From a virus (lineage: Duplodnaviria; Heunggongvirae; Uroviricota; Caudoviricetes): 7,523 nucleotides of DNA. The notes under the pieces were generated by a model that made no database searches, was not told the DNA's origin, and saw only the letters and a list, made by a program, of their open reading frames with translations. The DNA is taken from positions 1 through 7,523 of IMG/VR virus record IMGVR_UViG_2609460344_000014, one strand, 5' to 3'. Below, piece by piece: positions 1 to 7,523 of the stretch. A program made the translations under genes and the position numbers. Numbering within the stretch: the first letter of the stretch is position 1; every line of letters starts with the position of its first letter.

Positions 1-177
1 CAAAACGTGAAGTAATATTTCAGTTGGCGAATAATATCCGACAGTAATCACTCTGCGCAATAGCGCGGCCTTTTTCGTATTGCGGGCTGTTGTCTATCTT
101 CTGCCATTGTCCTGTAACTTCCGGACTTCAGCCCGCTCCTCATTTTACTCACAATATTATCCAGGCCGGGAGGATTC

Positions 178-2121
178 ATGGCATTTAAACACTATGACGT
201 GGTCAGGGCGGCGTCGCCGTCAGACCTTGCGGAGCGACTGACACAAAAACTGAAGGAAGGCTGGCAGCCGTTTGGCAGTCCTGTGGCTATCACGCCTTAT
301 ACACTGATGCAGGCCATTGCCGCAGAGGGTGATGTGACCACGCCTGTGGTTGTGCCCGACACAGGGGCTGGTGGCTCTCCGGGAGTGGCTACCACTGAAC
401 CGGAGTATTACTACGTTATTCCCCAGGCCGGGCAGTCGAACGGTATGGCCTATGGTGAGGGGCTTCCTCTGCCGGAGACCTATGATCGCCCTGACTCCCG
501 TATTAAGCAGCTGGCCCGTCGCAGCACTGTGACGCCGGGTGGTGATACCTGTGCATACAATGACGTTATTCCGGCAGACCACTGTCTGCATGATGTTCAG
601 GACATGAGCGCACTTAACCATCCTCATGCAGACCTGAGTAAGGGCCAGTACGGGACTGTCGGTCAGGGGCTGCATATTGCCAAAAAACTGCTGCCTTATA
701 TCCCGCAGAATGCCGGGATTCTTCTGGTGCCCTGTTGCCGTGGCGGGTCTGGTTTAACCGTGGGTAATGACGGCACGTTCAGCGAAACGTCTGGCGCATC
801 GGCAAATTCAGCCCGCTGGGGAGTGGGTAAACCGCTGTATCAGGATTTTCTCTTCCGTACAAAAGCGGCGCTGTCGAAGAACCCGAAAAACAGGCTTCTG
901 GCCGTGGTATGGATGCAGGGGGAAAATGATCTTGCGGACGGCAGTCAGCAGCACAGCGGCCTGTTTACCACTATGGTGCAGCAGTTCAGGGCTGATATGG
1001 CTGCATATTCTGCACAGTGTGTTGGCGGAAGTGCTGGCTCGGTGCCGTGGATTTGTGGTGACACCACGTATTACTGGAAGAATCTTAACGCCGATAAATA
1101 TGAGGCGGTATATGGCGGTTACAAGGGCAGGGAAGCACAGAATATTTTCTTTGTTCCTTTTATGACGGATGAGAATGGACAGAGCACGCCAACGAATGCT
1201 CCGGCGGAAGACCCGGATATTGTGGCTGTCGGGTATTACGGTGCAGCATCCCGAACCCAGGGCAGTTTTGTTTCGACACAGCGTGACAGCCATTTCAGCT
1301 CATGGGCACGCAGGGGCGTCATTTCAGACCGTCTGGCCTCAGCTATTATGCTCCATGCAGGGCGCACGGCTGAATTGATGCGCGGGCAGACCGTGACACC
1401 ACCGGATGAGAAGCCGTCACCTGATACACCATCAAAACCGTCCACGCCACCCGCAGACACCACGACGATGAGTACGCTATTTGCTTACCGGGCATCTGAG
1501 TCTGAAGGACGGTTGACACCACAGGGTTGGGCTGCCGGAGGTGGCAAGGCTCAAATCGTGGATGATGCCGGAGCCAGCGGGGGTAAGGCAATGAAACTGA
1601 CCAAGGAAACAGGAAGAGCCCCCTGGTACCTTGAGCATGATGCTGGTAATGGTGCGGACCTGCTGGGTAAAGGTGGTCTTGTCAGTTGTCGTTTTAAACT
1701 CGATGGCGCGCTTACGGCTAATCAGTACGCACTGGCGCTGTACTGGCCGGTTTCTTCATTGCCTCAGGGTGTCACACTGGAAGGTAATGCCGGTAACAAT
1801 CTGCTGGCGTCGTTTTACGTACAGAGCGATGCCACAGACCTCAACGTGATGTACCACAAGGGTAACGCTGACCAGAACACGAAGCTGGGGTCATTCGGCG
1901 CATTTGACAACGAATGGCATACGCTGGGTTTCCGTTTTGCCGGTAATAACAGCATTCAGGTGACGCCGGTGATTGATGGTCAGGATGGTGCACCGTTCAT
2001 GCTGTCGCAGTCTCCGGTAGGTTCTTTTGCGGCAGACAAATTACGTGTAACGGATATCACAAAAGCGGCGACGTATACGGTGCTGATTGAAAGTATAACA
2101 GTGGAAGTGAATAACCCGTAA
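178..2121 (+). CDS. nanS-p: Prophage-encoded sialate O-acetylesterase, NanS-p family (N-terminal DUF1737-like region, SGNH/SASA esterase core, C-terminal lectin-like domain)
   Basis: 647-aa ORF with GGGAGG 4 nt upstream of ATG 178. GQSN esterase signature (IPQAGQSNG, residues 85-88, nt 430-441). Length and three-part architecture match the large ORF found downstream of stx in lambdoid Stx phages (recalled, not searched). Position just upstream of the S holin is as expected. Confidence 0.85.
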   Translation: MAFKHYDVVRAASPSDLAERLTQKLKEGWQPFGSPVAITPYTLMQAIAAEGDVTTPVVVPDTGAGGSPGVATTEPEYYYVIPQAGQSNGMAYGEGLPLPETYDRPDSRIKQLARRSTVTPGGDTCAYNDVIPADHCLHDVQDMSALNHPHADLSKGQYGTVGQGLHIAKKLLPYIPQNAGILLVPCCRGGSGLTVGNDGTFSETSGASANSARWGVGKPLYQDFLFRTKAALSKNPKNRLLAVVWMQGENDLADGSQQHSGLFTTMVQQFRADMAAYSAQCVGGSAGSVPWICGDTTYYWKNLNADKYEAVYGGYKGREAQNIFFVPFMTDENGQSTPTNAPAEDPDIVAVGYYGAASRTQGSFVSTQRDSHFSSWARRGVISDRLASAIMLHAGRTAELMRGQTVTPPDEKPSPDTPSKPSTPPADTTTMSTLFAYRASESEGRLTPQGWAAGGGKAQIVDDAGASGGKAMKLTKETGRAPWYLEHDAGNGADLLGKGGLVSCRFKLDGALTANQYALALYWPVSSLPQGVTLEGNAGNNLLASFYVQSDATDLNVMYHKGNADQNTKLGSFGAFDNEWHTLGFRFAGNNSIQVTPVIDGQDGAPFMLSQSPVGSFAADKLRVTDITKAATYTVLIESITVEVNNP

Positions 2122-2269
2122 GCAGGAAAAAAAGACCGCCGTGGCAGGGAAAACAAGGAGCCAGAACCGGCGGCAGAAGTCGCTACATCCTTAGCAAAAA
2201 TATGCTGAGCAAAAAATGCAGGAGTTTTTTACTGGCAGGCATTGACCATGTCAATAATGGAGATGAATA

Positions 2270-2452
2270 ATGACATTTTTACAGCTGATTATGTTGTATT
2301 TCTGTACAGCAGTTTGTGTGCTGTATCTTCTTTCTGGTGGGTACAGAGTCGTGAGAGATTTCTGGCGCAGACAGATTGACAAAAGGGCCGCTGAGAAAAT
2401 CAGCGCCAGTCAGTCAGCCGGAACAAAACCCGAAGAGTCTCTCATTCCGTAG
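2270..2452 (+). CDS. Small single-pass membrane protein, 60 aa, unknown function
   Basis: ATG 2270 preceded by GGAG (2259-2262, 7-nt spacing). N-terminal hydrophobic helix (FLQLIMLYFCTAVCVLYLLSGG) followed by a basic tail. Same strand as flanking late genes. Confidence 0.45.
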   Translation: MTFLQLIMLYFCTAVCVLYLLSGGYRVVRDFWRRQIDKRAAEKISASQSAGTKPEESLIP

Positions 2453-2489
2453 CAACTTTCTTAACAACACCTTTCAACGAGAAAATACC

Positions 2490-2759
2490 ATGTCAGAAAT
2501 AAAATCGCTGGTCACTGCTGAAGCAGTGAAGGAAGTCCTGCGCTCTGAAGAAGTCAGAAGCGCACTGAAACAGCAACTTCGTCAGAATCTTGAGGCGCGT
2601 CTTGATGCTGAAGTGGATGCCATTCTGGATGAACTGCTGGGGGTACCGGCTGCTCCCGGGCCTGAAGACGGTGCGGGTGACAGTGCTGTTTCAGATGGTG
2701 TCGTGTCTCAGCCTGATGGTGGCAGTGAGCCTCAGCCTGACGGCGAAATGATGATGTAA
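2490..2759 (+). CDS. Hypothetical protein, 89 aa, helical N-terminus and acidic Gly/Pro/Asp-rich C-terminus
   Basis: Track ORF 2376-2759 overlaps the preceding ORF; the internal ATG 2490 (MSEIKSLVTAEAV...) gives a non-overlapping gene. Weak SD. Function not recognisable from sequence. Confidence 0.5.
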   Translation: MSEIKSLVTAEAVKEVLRSEEVRSALKQQLRQNLEARLDAEVDAILDELLGVPAAPGPEDGAGDSAVSDGVVSQPDGGSEPQPDGEMMM

Positions 2760-2834
2760 CCATGCGCAGGGGCTGTCGGTGTGAGCTGATGCCCCTCTTG
2801 TTGTTGTGAGCTTCCGGATTGCGGGAGACGGGGT

Positions 2835-3050
2835 ATGTACCAGATGGAAAAAATCACAACAGGTGTGTCATACACCACGTCAGCGGTGGGAACGGGCTAC
2901 TGGTTCCTGCAGTTGCTGGACAGGGTTTCCCCGTCTCAGTGGGCGGCAATAGGCGTGCTGGGGAGTCTGCTGTTTGGTCTGTTGACGTACCTGACGAACC
3001 TGTATTTCAAAATCAGAGAGGACCGTCGTAAGGCGGCACGGGGAGAGTAG
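2835..3050 (+). CDS. S: Class II holin, phage 21 S-type pinholin (71 aa) with dual-start motif
   Basis: Translation [71 protein letters not shown] closely matches S21-type holins as recalled. Two in-frame starts (ATG 2835 and ATG 2844, Met1/Met4) give the antiholin/holin pair. Two TMDs and a charged C-terminus. GGAG upstream. Confidence 0.9.
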
Positions 3051-3053
3051 GTG

Positions 3054-3134
3054 ATGAACCATGAAGAAATGAATCAGCGCTTCAGTCGTCTGGAAAATGA
3101 AATTGCTGAACTGAATAAAAACTGTCGGCGCTGA
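3054..3134 (+). CDS. Tiny ORF, 26 aa (MNHEEMNQRFSRLENEIAELNKNCRR), possibly a leader or coupling ORF or the detached N-terminus of the next gene
   Basis: Starts 4 nt after the holin stop, with GTG 3051 as an alternative start and GGGGAGAG upstream. Its TGA (3132-3134) overlaps the ATG (3134-3136) of the following 158-aa ORF, which has no SD of its own. Too short for the ORF track. Confidence 0.25.
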   Translation: MNHEEMNQRFSRLENEIAELNKNCRR

Positions 3135-3610
3135 TGCCTTCTGAAGATGAAAAAAAACGCCGCGATGAGCAGTTTGCTGCGTTTGACGATTATTGTCGGA
3201 AAGTGATGAGCAGAAATCTCGCAGAGTGTTTCAGTATTCATAATGATAATTTCAGTGAGCTGGAATGGGAGTGTAACCGGCCATCCTTTGTTGTATCCGG
3301 TGATGCTGGGAAAATAACCATCTCAGAAAATGGGAAAGTAACACCTCCATCGCACCAGCACAGTGAGGAGCTCATTGAATTTGCCATTGATTACCTGAAG
3401 AACAATAAAAAGCAGGGGCTGATGAAGCGCGTTGGCCGTTGCATGGGATATCTTCAGGTAGCCGCTGAGATTGAAGCGCTGGCCAGTGGTGCTGATAAGG
3501 ATGCAATTGTGCGGGAGGCTCTTCTTCGTGATTTTAATACTCCACCCTTTAAAAAAGTGCCGGCTTACTGGCTTCATCCGGGGCTGACTTATCTTAAAGT
3601 GCGTATTTAG
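3134..3610 (+). CDS. Hypothetical protein, 158 aa, inserted between holin and endolysin (candidate moron)
   Basis: Uninterrupted 158-aa ORF on the late-gene strand between S and R. No TM segment, no recognisable catalytic motif. Looks AT-richer by eye than S and R (not computed). Start coupled to the upstream tiny ORF through a TGATG overlap. Confidence 0.6.
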   Translation: MPSEDEKKRRDEQFAAFDDYCRKVMSRNLAECFSIHNDNFSELEWECNRPSFVVSGDAGKITISENGKVTPPSHQHSEELIEFAIDYLKNNKKQGLMKRVGRCMGYLQVAAEIEALASGADKDAIVREALLRDFNTPPFKKVPAYWLHPGLTYLKVRI

Positions 3611-3646
3611 TGGGCCAGGGACAGCGGCTGAATATTTAATATATCC

Positions 3647-4180
3647 ATGAACACCAAAATCAAATACGGCCTGTCGGCTGCCGTTCTGGCGCTGATTGCC
3701 GCTGGTGCGCCTGCGCCTGACATTCTCGACCAGTTTCTGGATGAAAAGGAAGGTAACCACACCACGGCATACCGTGATGGCGCGGGTATCTGGACCATCT
3801 GTCGCGGTGCCATTCTGGTGGATGGTAAACCTGTCGTCCCGGGCATGAAGTTGTCGAAGGAGAAATGCGACCAGGTTAACGCCATCGAACGTGATAAGGC
3901 GCTGGCATGGGTGGAGAAAAACATCAAAGTGCCATTGACCGAACCCCAGAAAGCGGGGATCGCGTCATTCTGTCCGTACAACATTGGTCCCGGTAAGTGT
4001 TTCCCGTCGACGTTTTACAGACGAATTAATGCTGGTGATCGCAGGGGAGCATGTGAGGCGATTCGCTGGTGGATTAAGGACGGTGGCAGAGACTGCCGTA
4101 TTCGTTCAAACAACTGCTACGGTCAGGTATCCCGTCGTGACCAGGAGAGCGCGCTGGCGTGCTGGGGTATCGACAGATAA
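3647..4180 (+). CDS. R: SAR endolysin, T4-lysozyme-like (GH24) muramidase, 177 aa
   Basis: N-terminal weakly hydrophobic Gly/Ala-rich signal-anchor-release segment (LSAAVLALIAAGAPA) followed by an E...D...T catalytic triad spacing (EGNHTTAYRDGAGIWT). Pairing with a pinholin is the expected arrangement. No obvious SD before ATG 3647. Confidence 0.9.
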   Translation: MNTKIKYGLSAAVLALIAAGAPAPDILDQFLDEKEGNHTTAYRDGAGIWTICRGAILVDGKPVVPGMKLSKEKCDQVNAIERDKALAWVEKNIKVPLTEPQKAGIASFCPYNIGPGKCFPSTFYRRINAGDRRGACEAIRWWIKDGGRDCRIRSNNCYGQVSRRDQESALACWGIDR

Positions 4181-4269
4181 GCAGAATATTTTGCTGAAAA
4201 ATAAGGCATGGCCACGCGGGCGGATAACATGAAATCCTGCGAACTGGCGAAACGTAAGTGAATAAAAGT

Positions 4270-4308
4270 AAAAACCCCGTTTGTTGGCAGCAAGCGGGGT
4301 TTTGTTTT
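4270..4308. terminator. Rho-independent-type hairpin (aaaaCCCCG, 15-nt loop, CGGGGtttt, then gttttt), potentially bidirectional
   Basis: GC stem CCCCG/CGGGG (4274-4278 / 4294-4298) extended by A:U pairs, followed by a T-run on the + strand. The complementary strand also has T-rich sequence after the stem. Lies about 90 nt downstream of the R stop. Confidence 0.5.
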
Positions 4309-4374
4309 TATGGCAGTAAGCTATGGGAGGCTGCCTTGATTGATTTTAGCAAACTGATTAGGGAGTTGCGACTC

Positions 4375-4470
4375 ATGATTAGTCAATTACCAAACTGGAA
4401 ATTTTTGCTGGTCTGGAGCATCCCTTTTTTATGGGTAGTATCCCAGTTAATTGTGGCAATTAAGGGGTAG
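4375..4470 (+). CDS. Small hydrophobic peptide, 31 aa (MISQLPNWKFLLVWSIPFLWVVSQLIVAIKG)
   Basis: ATG 4375 with AGGGAG (4360-4365) upstream. Predicted single TM helix. First of four back-to-back tiny ORFs between R and Rz. Confidence 0.35.
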   Translation: MISQLPNWKFLLVWSIPFLWVVSQLIVAIKG

Positions 4471-4472
4471 CT

Positions 4473-4604
4473 ATGTCAGACAAACTCATAACGCCGGCAA
4501 AGGTCCTGTGTGTGATTGTCGGTATTTCATTTTCACTAATGCTGGTTGCTCTTTTTCTGTCCCTCGCCTGGGTGATGTTGTCTTCGTCGGGGCTGCTGGG
4601 GTGA
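4473..4604 (+). CDS. Small hydrophobic peptide, 43 aa (MSDKLITPAKVLCVIVGISFSLMLVALFLSLAWVMLSSSGLLG)
   Basis: ATG 4473 with AAGGGG (4462-4467) at 5-nt spacing. Begins 2 nt after the previous ORF's stop. Single predicted TM helix. Confidence 0.4.
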   Translation: MSDKLITPAKVLCVIVGISFSLMLVALFLSLAWVMLSSSGLLG

Positions 4605-4606
4605 CA

Positions 4607-4723
4607 GTGACTGATGACATCAGCAGAGCGCTGGCTTTTGCTATTAAGTGGGTGGCTGTTGGTATTGCTGTGTCTCCGATGCTGTATGGGCTGGCTAAAC
4701 TGGTCATTGCGCTGAAATCGTGA
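4607..4723 (+). CDS. Small hydrophobic peptide, 38 aa (GTG start; ..TDDISRALAFAIKWVAVGIAVSPMLYGLAKLVIALKS), possible paralogue of the next ORF
   Basis: GTG 4607 (alternative GTG 4601 overlaps the upstream TGA). Codon-by-codon alignment with ORF 4735-4821 shows a shared AFAI(K/R)xVA core with synonymous third-position differences (gct/gca, gct/gcc, gtg/gtc). Start and frame are uncertain because other frames here are also hydrophobic. Confidence 0.3.
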   Translation: MTDDISRALAFAIKWVAVGIAVSPMLYGLAKLVIALKS

Positions 4724-4734
4724 ACTTTAAAAAG

Positions 4735-4821
4735 ATGAGTGCTGAACTTATTCGGGCAATGGCATTTGCCATTCGTATTGTGGCCATTGCTGTTCTGGTC
4801 TGGGCAATCCGTTGGTGGTGA
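4735..4821 (+). CDS. Small hydrophobic peptide, 28 aa ([28 protein letters not shown])
   Basis: ATG 4735. Stop TGA 4819-4821 lies 1 nt before the Rz ATG (4823) and overlaps the Rz SD (GGTGGTG). Resembles the preceding ORF at peptide level. Confidence 0.3.
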
Positions 4822-4822
4822 T

Positions 4823-5290
4823 ATGAACCGTGTTCTGTGTGTGGTGATTATTGTCCTGCTGGTAGCCTGTGGTGTGCTTAGTCTGGGGCTGAATCATTAC
4901 CGCGATAACGCCATCACCTACAAAGCGCAGCGCGATAAAAAAGTCAGTGAGCTGAAACTGGCGAATGCCACTATTACTGATATGCAGCAGCGCCAGCGCG
5001 ATGTTGCTGCGCTCGATGCAAAATACTCGAGGGAATTAGCCGATGCGAGAGCTGAAAATGAAACTCTGCGTGCTGATGTTGCCGCTGGTCGTAAGCGCCT
5101 GCGGGTCAACGCCACCTGCCCCGGTACCGTGCGTGAAGCCACCGGCACCTCCAGCGTGGATAATGCAACCGGCCCCCGACTGGCAGACACCGCTGAACGG
5201 GATTATTTCATCCTCAGAGAACGGTTGATGACAATGCAGAAGCAGCTGGAAGGGGCGCAGGAATATATCCGCACTCAGTGCCTGAAATAA
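4823..5290 (+). CDS. Rz: Rz i-spanin (inner-membrane spanin subunit), 155 aa
   Basis: Translation from ATG 4823 ([39 protein letters not shown]...[30 protein letters not shown]) is near-colinear with lambda Rz as recalled: N-terminal TMD plus coiled-coil periplasmic domain. The track ORF at 4739 is a GTG-extended version. Confidence 0.9.
5043..5228 (+). CDS. Rz1: Rz1 o-spanin lipoprotein, embedded in +1 frame within Rz
   Basis: 61-aa ORF wholly inside Rz. Signal peptide with lipobox (LPLVVSAC) and proline-rich mature part ([35 protein letters not shown]), matching lambda Rz1 as recalled. ATG 5058 is an alternative start. Confidence 0.85.
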
Positions 5291-5332
5291 GTTTTGTTGA
5301 TGCGCCGTATCGTCGCTGTATTCCCTCATTAA

Positions 5333-6237
<905 letters not shown>

Positions 6238-6244
6238 GGAGGTC

Positions 6245-6853
6245 ATGGTGGATAAGGGAAAAGAGATTATTGCAGTACGAAATGCAGCCTGCAACGAATA
6301 CGGCGGGATAAACTGTGAGGTGCAGTTTGAAGATGCGGTCAATGAAAAAGGAGAGCAGGTATGGCTGCCGTATACCGCAACGGAAACGGATAATACAGAA
6401 CACGGAAAAGCCTTGTGGTCGGGGCTGACAGCAGGAACATACGGAAGTGTGAGTGCCTTTGTTGCCACGGAAGCAATACTGGAAGCGGCAAAGGCGGCGA
6501 AAAGGGAAGAGATTAATATCTGGCGTGATGTGCAGGAGAATATGGAATACGTGATGGAATTCAACGGAAGGAACTGGGATTACGGCAAGAAGACGTTGTC
6601 CAGGATAAGCACGACACGACTGATGGCAGAGAACAACCGTCTTCCGGAAGGGTTTGCCTGGACGGACGGGGATAATAATGTGGTGCCGGTAACGGCGGCG
6701 GAGATAATTGCGCTGGCAGATGCGACAGAGCAGGCGATGTTTGCGAAAGGTGTGGAGATTAATACACGTCAGCTTCAGATGAAAGCAGAGGTTGAGGCGC
6801 TGACAGAGCTGAAGGCGATCCGCAGTTATGTTGTCGGATGGCCTGCAAGCTGA
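6245..6853 (+). CDS. Probable tail-fibre assembly (chaperone-like) protein, 202 aa
   Basis: Begins 8 nt after the tail-fibre stop, with GAGGAGG (6236-6242) overlapping that stop; GTG 6248 is an alternative start. Position immediately 3' of a tail-fibre gene and size are typical of tfa genes. Family assignment is from context and general resemblance, not a search. Confidence 0.5.
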   Translation: MVDKGKEIIAVRNAACNEYGGINCEVQFEDAVNEKGEQVWLPYTATETDNTEHGKALWSGLTAGTYGSVSAFVATEAILEAAKAAKREEINIWRDVQENMEYVMEFNGRNWDYGKKTLSRISTTRLMAENNRLPEGFAWTDGDNNVVPVTAAEIIALADATEQAMFAKGVEINTRQLQMKAEVEALTELKAIRSYVVGWPAS

Positions 6854-6855
6854 GT

Positions 6856-6884
6856 AAAAAAAACGGGACCACGGCCAGTCCCGG
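6856..6884 (-). terminator. Hairpin (CGGGAC, 8-nt loop, GTCCCG) flanked by an A8 tract: canonical intrinsic terminator for minus-strand transcription, possibly bidirectional
   Basis: Stem 6864-6869 / 6878-6883. On the minus strand the hairpin is followed directly by UUUUUUUU (complement of 6856-6863). On the + strand a T-run (6894-6899) follows after about 10 nt. Sits between the convergent tfa-like gene and ykgJ-like gene. Confidence 0.5.
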
Positions 6885-6997
6885 AACCATGAGTTTTTTA
6901 GGGTATTAGTTTGTTATCATAATTAGCGTGCTAAGTATGCCGTATCAGGCTGATTAGTGAAGTGATGTTGTTCGCATTTTTGCACGGCGGAGAATAT

Positions 6998-7327
6998 TCA
7001 GATTTTGGGAAATCCATATTTTTCCCGTGCGCGGTTACATGCTTCATTCGCGATGCCATTTTCGCCGGACATTGCGAATTCCCTGCATGTGGACGGACGG
7101 TTTTTGTAAACAGAGCAATATGCGTTTTCACCGGGGGGGCCGGCCAGAGCGACACATCGGGGATTTTTCTGATTGGTGCCGCGCATACAGCGATGAAAAG
7201 GAGATATTTGCTCAGTGAGACTGACCGGGACGTTTCCGCCAGCATCATCGGCTTCAGCCCAGTAAAAAGAGACGCGGAAAAATGCACAACAGGCACCACA
7301 CGTCATGCATGGATTCGGATTGTTCAT
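6998..7327 (-). CDS. ykgJ: YkgJ-family cysteine-cluster protein (putative zinc/iron-chelating CxxCxxCC domain), 109 aa
   Basis: Minus-strand ORF; start at the internal Met ([28 protein letters not shown]...) gives 109 aa with the CMTCGACC motif, matching E. coli YkgJ in length and motif as recalled. The track ORF extends to 7384 ([19 protein letters not shown]... extension), but that upstream ATG has GGAG only 1 nt away. Confidence 0.75.
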
Positions 7328-7425
7328 TTTTATACTATTTGTTGTTTTTTCAGCGATCAGATAAAAGGGCGCTGAAAAAAACATTCTCCAAAATTAGATT
7401 ATAACTATTTGATTTTATGGATAGA

Positions 7426-7459
7426 GGCATGCTTTTTACGAAAAAGTAAAAAGCATGCC
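7426..7459. repeat. Perfect 12-bp inverted repeat (GGCATGCTTTTT, 10-nt spacer, AAAAAGCATGCC)
   Basis: Exact reverse-complement arms at 7426-7437 and 7448-7459, in the region upstream of the minus-strand ykgJ-like gene. Function is not determinable from sequence: hairpin, protein-binding site or terminator for a gene beyond the window. Confidence 0.5.
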
Positions 7460-7523
7460 AAATTTGCCATTAACTCTTTGAATATTCAGCACTAATCATC
7501 TATTTCGGTTGCCTTCTTATTCA

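Follow-up and report, generated by a model that had tools for sequence, protein, structure and literature searches.

DUF1378 and DUF826 genes next to the lysis genes of lambdoid prophages: a probable autonomous accessory module of temperate phages

Introduction

HK97 gp15 and T4 Imm are small inner-membrane exclusion proteins, CptA and CptB make up a type IV toxin-antitoxin pair, and in phage 21 a stem-loop over the ribosome-binding site (RBS) of the holin gene S controls the ratio between its two starts. Together with the releasin of phage Mu and the prophage small RNAs (sRNAs) of the PasA/EcOnc52 type, these systems offer comparisons for the subject of this study, two small adjacent genes of the DUF1378 and DUF826 families. 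The genes lie between a nanS-p type esterase gene and an S21-type holin gene in a stretch of viral DNA of 7,523 nucleotides (IMG/VR virus record IMGVR_UViG_2609460344_000014, positions 1 to 7,523), referred to below as the window. The window comes from a lambdoid prophage, of which it contains the late region.

The Mu releasin, gp25, is a protein of 99 amino acids with its N-terminus outside and its C-terminus inside the cell (N-out/C-in), four periplasmic residues and an anionic cytoplasmic domain (PMC9239132). It releases signal-anchor-release (SAR) endolysins, that of phage 933W included (PMC9239132). EcOnc52 of Sakai prophage Sp4 is an Hfq-bound sRNA, grouped with PasA/PasC and EcOnc51 among the prophage sRNAs (PMC8550237; Tree et al. 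2014, PMC4104026), and an arrangement of esterase, PasA and holin is described in a 2026 preprint (bioRxiv 10.64898/2026.05.13.724894). For NanS-p, the phi24B homologue gp84 has been reported to be a processed, capsid-decorating protein (bioRxiv 10.64898/2026.04.10.717836). We found one paper that names both DUF1378 and DUF826; it gives, in one sentence, their presence between nanS-p and S, and no function. A literature search by locus tags returned only noise.

Results

The two open reading frames, ORF A and ORF B, belong to the DUF1378 and DUF826 families and are true protein genes kept by selection; with high confidence, they constitute a self-contained accessory module of two genes that temperate phages carry. 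Their positions in the window, with the evidence used, are as follows.

2270..2452, plus strand: DUF1378 gene (ORF A); PF07125, phrog_494, alignments, AlphaFold, substitution rates, charges
2490..2759, plus strand: DUF826 gene (ORF B); PF05696, phrog_311, alignment, AlphaFold, substitution rates, charge

ORF A encodes 60 amino acids from an ATG start, with a GGAG (2257-2260) nine bases upstream as its Shine-Dalgarno (SD) sequence. Its product matches PF07125 (DUF1378) at 124.2 bits, residues 1-59 falling on profile positions 1-59 of 59; the curated Pfam cut-off, for this family and for PF05696 alike, is 25 bits. It also matches phrog_494, labelled as of unknown function. Strong hydrophobicity marks residues 3-25, where the Kyte-Doolittle score over 19 residues peaks at 2.27 in the segment that starts at residue 3. 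The other 35 residues have a net charge of +3, and the AlphaFold model is a single helix spanning residues 3-48. ORF A therefore has the dimensions of its family, about 59 residues with one N-terminal hydrophobic helix, and the 60-residue membrane-anchored peptide with a good SD proposed in the earlier note is borne out. With two residues before the helix and eight Lys/Arg after it, the positive-inside rule predicts an N-out/C-in topology, and DUF1378 is predicted to be a single-pass inner-membrane protein with a basic cytoplasmic helix. It does not resemble a holin, having one helix rather than two and no holin match in Pfam or PHROG. Alignment shows the transmembrane residues to be highly conserved from E. 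coli through to a Stenotrophomonas phage. The copy in the window is an undistinguished member of the family, with 97% identity to catalogued E. coli proteins, and 933W L0106 (PF07125/phrog_494) has the same length and the same position between nanS-p and the holin gene.

ORF B encodes 89 amino acids, also from an ATG, behind a weak SD (GAG, 8 nt upstream). The match to PF05696 (DUF826) scores 120.8 bits and places residues 1-73 on profile positions 1-73 of 75; phrog_311, again labelled as of unknown function, is matched as well. The product consists of a three-helix N-terminal domain (residues 1-51; AlphaFold helices at 2-6, 10-17 and 20-50) and an acidic, Pro/Gly-rich disordered tail ending in MMM, where the AlphaFold confidence measure pLDDT is <50 at residues 57-82. 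The net charge is -12 and the isoelectric point 4.06, and the protein is predicted to be cytoplasmic. These models agree with the helical N-terminus and acidic disordered tail read from the sequence beforehand. Among family members the acidic tail differs in length and sequence, and hydrophobic residues are kept at its end (MMM, TML, TLL).

Longer forms of ORF B were considered and set aside. A 127-residue reading from TTG 2376 is present in the window, but a long DUF826 form of 127-141 residues is unsupported: distant homologues without exception start with the Met encoded at 2490, and the added part overlaps the DUF1378 frame. We read the N-terminal extensions of 38-52 residues in some DUF826 database entries, as well as phrog_8301 and the P0192-type fusions, as start-site or frameshift artefacts. 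Programmed frameshifting between ORF A and ORF B was dropped, there being no supporting signal.

Both genes are under purifying constraint as judged by the ratio of nonsynonymous to synonymous substitution rates (dN/dS). The median pairwise value is 0.18 for DUF1378 (58 unique coding sequences); the DUF826 medians (107 unique coding sequences) are 0.23 for the helical domain and 0.52 for the tail, and the holin gives 0.06 for comparison. More than 250 related loci keep the frames, so the lack of conservation that would have undone the earlier description is not seen. We take the ORFs to be real genes because dN/dS is well under 1, curated families are matched and the frames are conserved. Their very short length, the weak RBS of ORF B and the remnant state of the prophage might instead suggest chance or decaying frames without function. 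This is extremely improbable, given the dN/dS values, the matches of both products to curated hidden Markov models, and the intact state of the genes in three phage lineages and distant hosts.

As objects, the genes are known members of DUF families, long catalogued, and not a new kind of element. RefSeq labels them "DUF1378 family protein" and "DUF826 domain-containing protein" in the closest genomes, and the pair is present in 933W (L0106 and the next ORF), VT1/VT2-Sakai and Min27, at ~81% DNA identity to the window. The earlier description of the genes as uncharacterised is right as to function, but it leaves out that they have long been listed as DUF1378 and DUF826 (for example 933W L0106). 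About 300-307 phage records carry matches to the pair of families, as do 1015 of 5426 complete E. coli genomes (~19%), with a median of three copies per genome. Both families are narrow, and named matches are from Escherichia or Shigella; a DUF826 profile search among 1.84 billion proteins yielded 60 cluster representatives. When species-representative genomes were scanned, an E. coli-type DUF826 profile found no locus, and a profile built from distant DUF826 members found Pantoea only. The new elements are the recognition that the pair makes up a self-contained, co-evolving module, and a map of the regulatory elements around it. The earlier reading omits this autonomy, and it omits the candidate sRNA gene in the upstream spacer.

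The autonomy of the pair is most evident from the way its members diverge. Pairwise distances of DUF1378 and of the DUF826 helical domain correlate at r=0.93, and at 0.80 in lambdoids alone (103 distinct combinations). By comparison, distances in the pair correlate poorly with those in the adjacent 120 residues of the esterase C-terminus (r 0.23 and 0.16) and with those in S21 (r 0.36-0.37). The high correlation within the pair and the low correlations with its flanks imply that recombination breaks on both sides of the pair and seldom between the two genes. Recombination thus very probably exchanges the module without either flank, NanS-p to the left or the S21 pinholin to the right. This co-evolution, with the reversal of gene order described below, is the strongest evidence that both products probably work together, likely in physical contact.

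The immediate neighbours of the pair in the window are those between which the earlier note had placed it.

178..2121, plus strand: nanS-p type sialate O-acetylesterase gene (DUF1737 + SASA + DUF6645, by Pfam matches); upstream neighbour, not part of the pair
2835..3050, plus strand: S21-type class II holin (pinholin) gene with dual start Met1/Met4; PF04971 at 112 bits and PHROG holin families; downstream neighbour

Lambdoid E. coli prophages hardly depart from the order nanS-p, DUF1378, DUF826, S, and the spacing is constant. The pair sits directly upstream of an S21-type holin gene in nearly every lambdoid locus with sufficient downstream sequence, and an R21-type lysozyme gene usually comes next after that holin. 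Mu-like E. coli prophages have the order gin, esterase, DUF1378, DUF826, com/mom, with no holin nearby. In Mu/P2-like prophages the order of the pair is reversed: tail fibre, assembly protein, DUF826, DUF1378, Dam methylase; esterase and holin genes are both absent from the vicinity. Each gene also occurs alone. DUF1378 stands by itself at the tail-fibre/Dam site in sister elements of the Mu/P2-like prophages, and in Fels-1-like prophages of Salmonella and Pantoea a shorter DUF826 is found by itself, with Rz on one side and the small terminase gene on the other. In phage BUCT709 (OM816835; locus L093, 2938-4153), a solitary DUF1378 gene overlaps the spanin stop codon, in a lysis operon that otherwise encodes an R21-like SAR endolysin and an Rz-like spanin and has no recognisable holin. 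BUCT709 is listed as infecting Stenotrophomonas; its SAR endolysin is very similar to the enterobacterial R21-like one.

The neighbours occur without the pair as well. S21 holin genes lack it in ~130 phage records, and nanS-p lacks it in ~46, including Stx2 phage 86, where the esterase gene is followed directly by the terminator and S. Strict dependence of the pair on the holin or on the esterase is ruled out by these pair-free contexts and by the esterase- and holin-free ones.

The esterase of the Mu-like prophages merits a separate remark. It is of the NanS type (SASA + DUF6645; locus L094, 2594-4636, and L096-L104), but a different N-terminal segment of ~100 residues replaces the capsid-binding DUF1737, which suggests that the Mu-like esterase attaches to a different virion structure, or to none.

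The company of the esterase raises the possibility that the pair serves NanS-p, in its folding, its membrane-proximal capsid assembly or the control of its self-processing, or by shielding the cell against the enzyme. A SASA + DUF6645 esterase gene stands directly ahead of the pair in E. coli lambdoid and Mu-like prophages, in 65 of the 66 esterase loci with enough downstream sequence, and all 80 IMG/VR loci found with DUF1378 follow an esterase. Esterase and pair share a strand and both stand ahead of one terminator, and a processed capsid-decorating esterase could plausibly need helpers. Even so, we regard a helper role as unlikely. Divergence of the pair is uncoupled from that of the esterase C-terminus, a candidate minus-strand sRNA gene lies between them, and each is found without the other: two loci (L292 and L294) have the pair and no esterase, the single genes too occur without one, and the phage records with an unaccompanied nanS-p were counted above. 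In addition, the phi24B virion proteome, as far as it was covered, shows no ORF at the expected position and no DUF826 peptide, which is a weak negative.

The sRNA gene just mentioned is a candidate located in the 148-nt spacer between nanS-p and ORF A.

2127..2254, minus strand: candidate PasA/EcOnc52-type sRNA gene; promoter, terminator, conservation, fold

The spacer probably holds this gene, on the strand opposite to its neighbours. The promoter consists of a -35 TTGACA (complement of 2249-2254), a 17-nt spacer and a -10 TAAAAA (complement of 2226-2231), and the -35 hexamer is only a few bases from the DUF1378 RBS. The terminator stem lies within 2134-2174 and is followed by a run of seven T (complement of 2127-2133) that abuts the nanS-p stop codon. 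The predicted transcript is ~90 nt long, with a fold z-score of -2.8. Lambdoid and Mu-like cassettes conserve the run of seven A, the TTGAC element and the hairpin, the last with compensatory changes. An Rfam scan of the whole window, with E up to 1, gave no matches. Alignments nonetheless place the candidate beside described sRNAs, in that EcOnc52 of Sakai Sp4 and the PasA locus of E2348/69 agree with the window in position, strand, promoter and terminator. Like PasA/PasC and EcOnc51/52, the candidate lies on the opposite strand between the esterase and the next rightward gene, has a promoter of the form TATTGACA...(T/G)AAAAA, and ends, right at the stop codon of the esterase gene, in a hairpin with a T7 terminator; the body of the RNA, however, is unlike EcOnc52 and PasA in sequence. 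In prophage PP2 of E2348/69 (locus L299, 2766-3214), the gap between esterase and holin contains two tandem minus-strand sRNA units, each with a TTGACA promoter and a terminator, which explains the reported 85-nt major and 236-nt minor PasA species.

A hydrophobic peptide of 60 residues with one transmembrane helix, just within the limit of <=60 residues for type I toxins, could in principle be such a toxin, with its translation repressed by the divergent sRNA encoded upstream on the minus strand. The -35 element of the sRNA-type unit lies near the DUF1378 RBS, and the sRNA would be antisense to the DUF1378 leader. This reading is very improbable and we reject it. The sRNA does not overlap the DUF1378 coding sequence, and the consistent partnering expected of such systems is not found: the sRNA type occurs without DUF1378 in E2348/69 PP2 and Sakai Sp4, and DUF1378 occurs without an sRNA spacer in BUCT709 and L292. 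Because each occurs without the other, the sRNA is, on the loci compared, a neighbour of the pair and not its dedicated partner.

Downstream, two hairpins separate the pair from the S coding sequence.

2768..2808, plus strand: intrinsic-terminator-type hairpin (stem 2768-2796) with T-rich tail; folds, RNAalifold consensus; closes the unit that holds the pair
2811..2827, plus strand: invariant stem-loop CTTCCG / CGGGAG; its 3' arm contains the SD of S

In the first, 2768-2773 and 2775-2780 pair with 2785-2796 to give 12 bp with one bulge and a 4-nt loop, followed by CTTGTTGTTGTG. The imperfect inverted repeat and T-rich sequence noticed earlier at this site are real, the repeat being the outer part of this longer hairpin. 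A simple terminator scan missed it, but a GC-rich hairpin is present at this site in all 39 distinct downstream sequences that were folded, Mu-like cassettes included. In related loci the stem sequences differ and the T-run is usually cleaner, that of the window being interrupted. In the RNAalifold consensus, compensatory changes are seen in 4 of the 9 base pairs. Phage 86 retains the hairpin even though it lacks the DUF1378 and DUF826 genes. We are confident that it represents a conserved intrinsic terminator that closes the module. The second hairpin has the same 6 pairs in each of the 14 diverse sequences compared, and it is found in every S-containing locus; we take it to correspond to the phage 21 S stem-loop that sets the dual-start ratio. 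The interval from nanS-p to S is accordingly a structured slot, made up of a candidate minus-strand sRNA gene, the pair, a terminator and a holin RBS hairpin.

The remainder of the window contains the following features downstream of S.

3134..3610: variable ORF of 158 amino acids; phrog_1085 (unknown function), C-terminal half only
3647..4180, plus strand: R21-type lysozyme gene with a SAR-like N-terminal segment, MNTKIKYGLSAAVLALIAAGAPAP; PF00959, N-terminal sequence
ending at 5290: Rz/Rz1

The slot between S and R (3051-3646) is a variable insertion site of this phage group, ranging from 8 to ~1500 nt in relatives, which have a YdfR/DUF1327 gene or nothing there. Past ~5383 the arrangement is no longer that of E. 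coli prophages. Directly after Rz, a 45-bp unit is repeated 8.9 times (5566-5966; 91% matches) and encodes collagen-like Gly-X-Y triplets; no start codon is present in this frame, which looks like the 3' part of a tail-fibre gene joined straight onto Rz. After this fragment comes a DUF4376 ORF of 202 amino acids (6245-6853), and then, on the minus strand, a gene for a CxxCxxCC zinc/iron-chelating domain (6998-7384) that looks like flanking host DNA. The loss of match past ~5383, the collagen-like fragment after Rz and the host-like gene indicate that the prophage is a remnant, which has lost its morphogenesis (head and tail) genes.

Discussion

What do the products of the pair do? The earlier note assigned them no function, and our searches leave that statement in place: the families are DUF1378 and DUF826, and no structure, defence model or paper supplies one. 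Foldseek of the DUF826 model against the PDB returned nothing, PDB sequence profiles gave chance-level matches for both families, and NCBIfam gave nothing meaningful. Nor did four family members match any PADLOC-DB defence model with E up to 1. Family, structure-profile and defence searches equated neither product with a characterised late-region protein, an identity that would have displaced the earlier description.

Scans upstream of the pair in four contexts revealed no consistent sigma-70 promoter, a weak negative given that the consensus scan was crude. The sole plus-strand promoter match in the window (2242-2271) overlaps the start codon. Since no sigma-70 promoter was found upstream, the pair is most simply read as late-operon genes expressed in lytic growth. 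Of the two features looked for in a moron, a downstream terminator is therefore present, and an upstream sigma-70 promoter of its own was not found.

We tentatively favor the possibility that the pair is a split releasin-like or antiholin-like modulator of SAR-type lysis proteins. Our preference stems from the complementary nature of the two products, an architecture like that of gp25, and the company of SAR-type endolysins. Phages with DUF1378 use endolysins of this type, namely R21-type in lambdoids and BUCT709, and a gp22 homologue in the Mu-like prophage that was examined. In the mechanism we envisage, DUF1378 would sit in the inner membrane with almost nothing in the periplasm, and its basic cytoplasmic helix (residues 26-48, net +4) would bind the long helix of DUF826 at its acidic end (residues 35-51, net -5). 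Binding would tether the anionic, partly disordered DUF826 to the cytoplasmic face of the membrane. Tether and anionic partner together would then have the overall architecture of phage Mu releasin gp25, distributed over two polypeptides. Late in infection, such a complex might act on membrane-held SAR-type lysis proteins, whether the R21-type endolysin, the first helix of the S21 pinholin as it exits, or both. The outcome would be a tuned time of lysis, and hence of phage and Shiga-toxin release, with the pair acting as an accessory modulator rather than as a core lysis gene.

The comparison with gp25 is one of works-like only. Gp25, like the pair, has an N-terminus that barely extends into the periplasm, a single transmembrane helix that bears a GG motif and has arginines where it meets the cytoplasm, and an anionic portion in the cytoplasm. 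The releasin topology, single-pass and N-out/C-in with few periplasmic residues, is also that of DUF1378, as a prediction. Gp25, however, is a single polypeptide, whereas here the tether and the anionic part are on two proteins: the cytoplasmic part of DUF1378 is +3, and the -12 of DUF826 is separate. Releasin genes are expected within five genes downstream of the endolysin; the pair in the window is upstream of both S and R, and only the DUF1378 gene of BUCT709 has the expected position.

Several further points weigh against a role in releasing lysis proteins. Homology to gp25/DUF2730 was undetected, with hhalign probabilities of 0.2-0.3% for both profiles and no DUF2730 match at E up to 1; homology of the pair to the Mu releasin is rejected on this basis (probability <1%). 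In the Mu-like prophage with the pair, homologues of gp22 and gp25 are already encoded ~25 kb away, so a releasin role for the pair would be redundant there. A terminator stands between the pair and S. The S21-holin phages that lack the pair, Stx2 phage 86 among them, show it to be dispensable. We infer the interaction between DUF1378 and DUF826 from charge and co-evolution only, and the pair may stand beside lysis genes simply because late operons commonly take up cargo there.

It is nearly as likely that the pair is exclusion or toxin-antidote cargo, with DUF1378 as a small inner-membrane effector that blocks the entry of other phages or perturbs the membrane, in the manner of HK97 gp15 or T4 Imm, and DUF826 as its labile acidic cytoplasmic regulator or antidote, as in a type IV pair like CptA/CptB. 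The pair is always at classic insertion points (before S, after Rz, after tail-fibre genes, before mom or Dam), it is closed by its own terminator, and it remains intact in the window although the prophage is a remnant. Its tight co-evolution, and the adjacency kept despite reversed order in one lineage, fit this possibility too. Additionally, the conserved transmembrane residues of DUF1378 suggest a specific partner within the membrane, and the conserved hydrophobic end of the DUF826 tail could be a degradation signal. A moron of the HK97 gp15 type is likewise a small single-pass inner-membrane protein, carried as late-operon cargo with a terminator after it. The differences are that no promoter of its own was found here, that there is a second, soluble partner, and that no sequence relationship exists. 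Three points count against a cargo role of this kind. The promoter scans, which revealed no sigma-70 promoter ahead of the pair in any context, leave expression from a resting prophage unsupported; PADLOC has no matching defence model; and each gene is also solitary, which a strict toxin-antidote pair could not tolerate.

To return to the split releasin-like or antiholin-like modulator, its most specific version is a two-polypeptide regulator in which a membrane tether recruits an anionic protein and thereby governs the exit of the R21-type endolysin and the S21 pinholin from the inner membrane. This is conceivable, although we consider it rather doubtful. The genes are ordinary as objects and their importance is modest, lying in the fact that they are under selection and sit immediately before the lysis genes that release Shiga toxin. 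The analysis narrows the question of their role to a testable one, that of a co-evolving unit, independent of NanS-p and of the holin, with an architecture of tether plus anionic partner. If the proposed role is true, a widespread and overlooked pair of genes would help to set lysis timing, and therefore Shiga-toxin release, in Stx phages.

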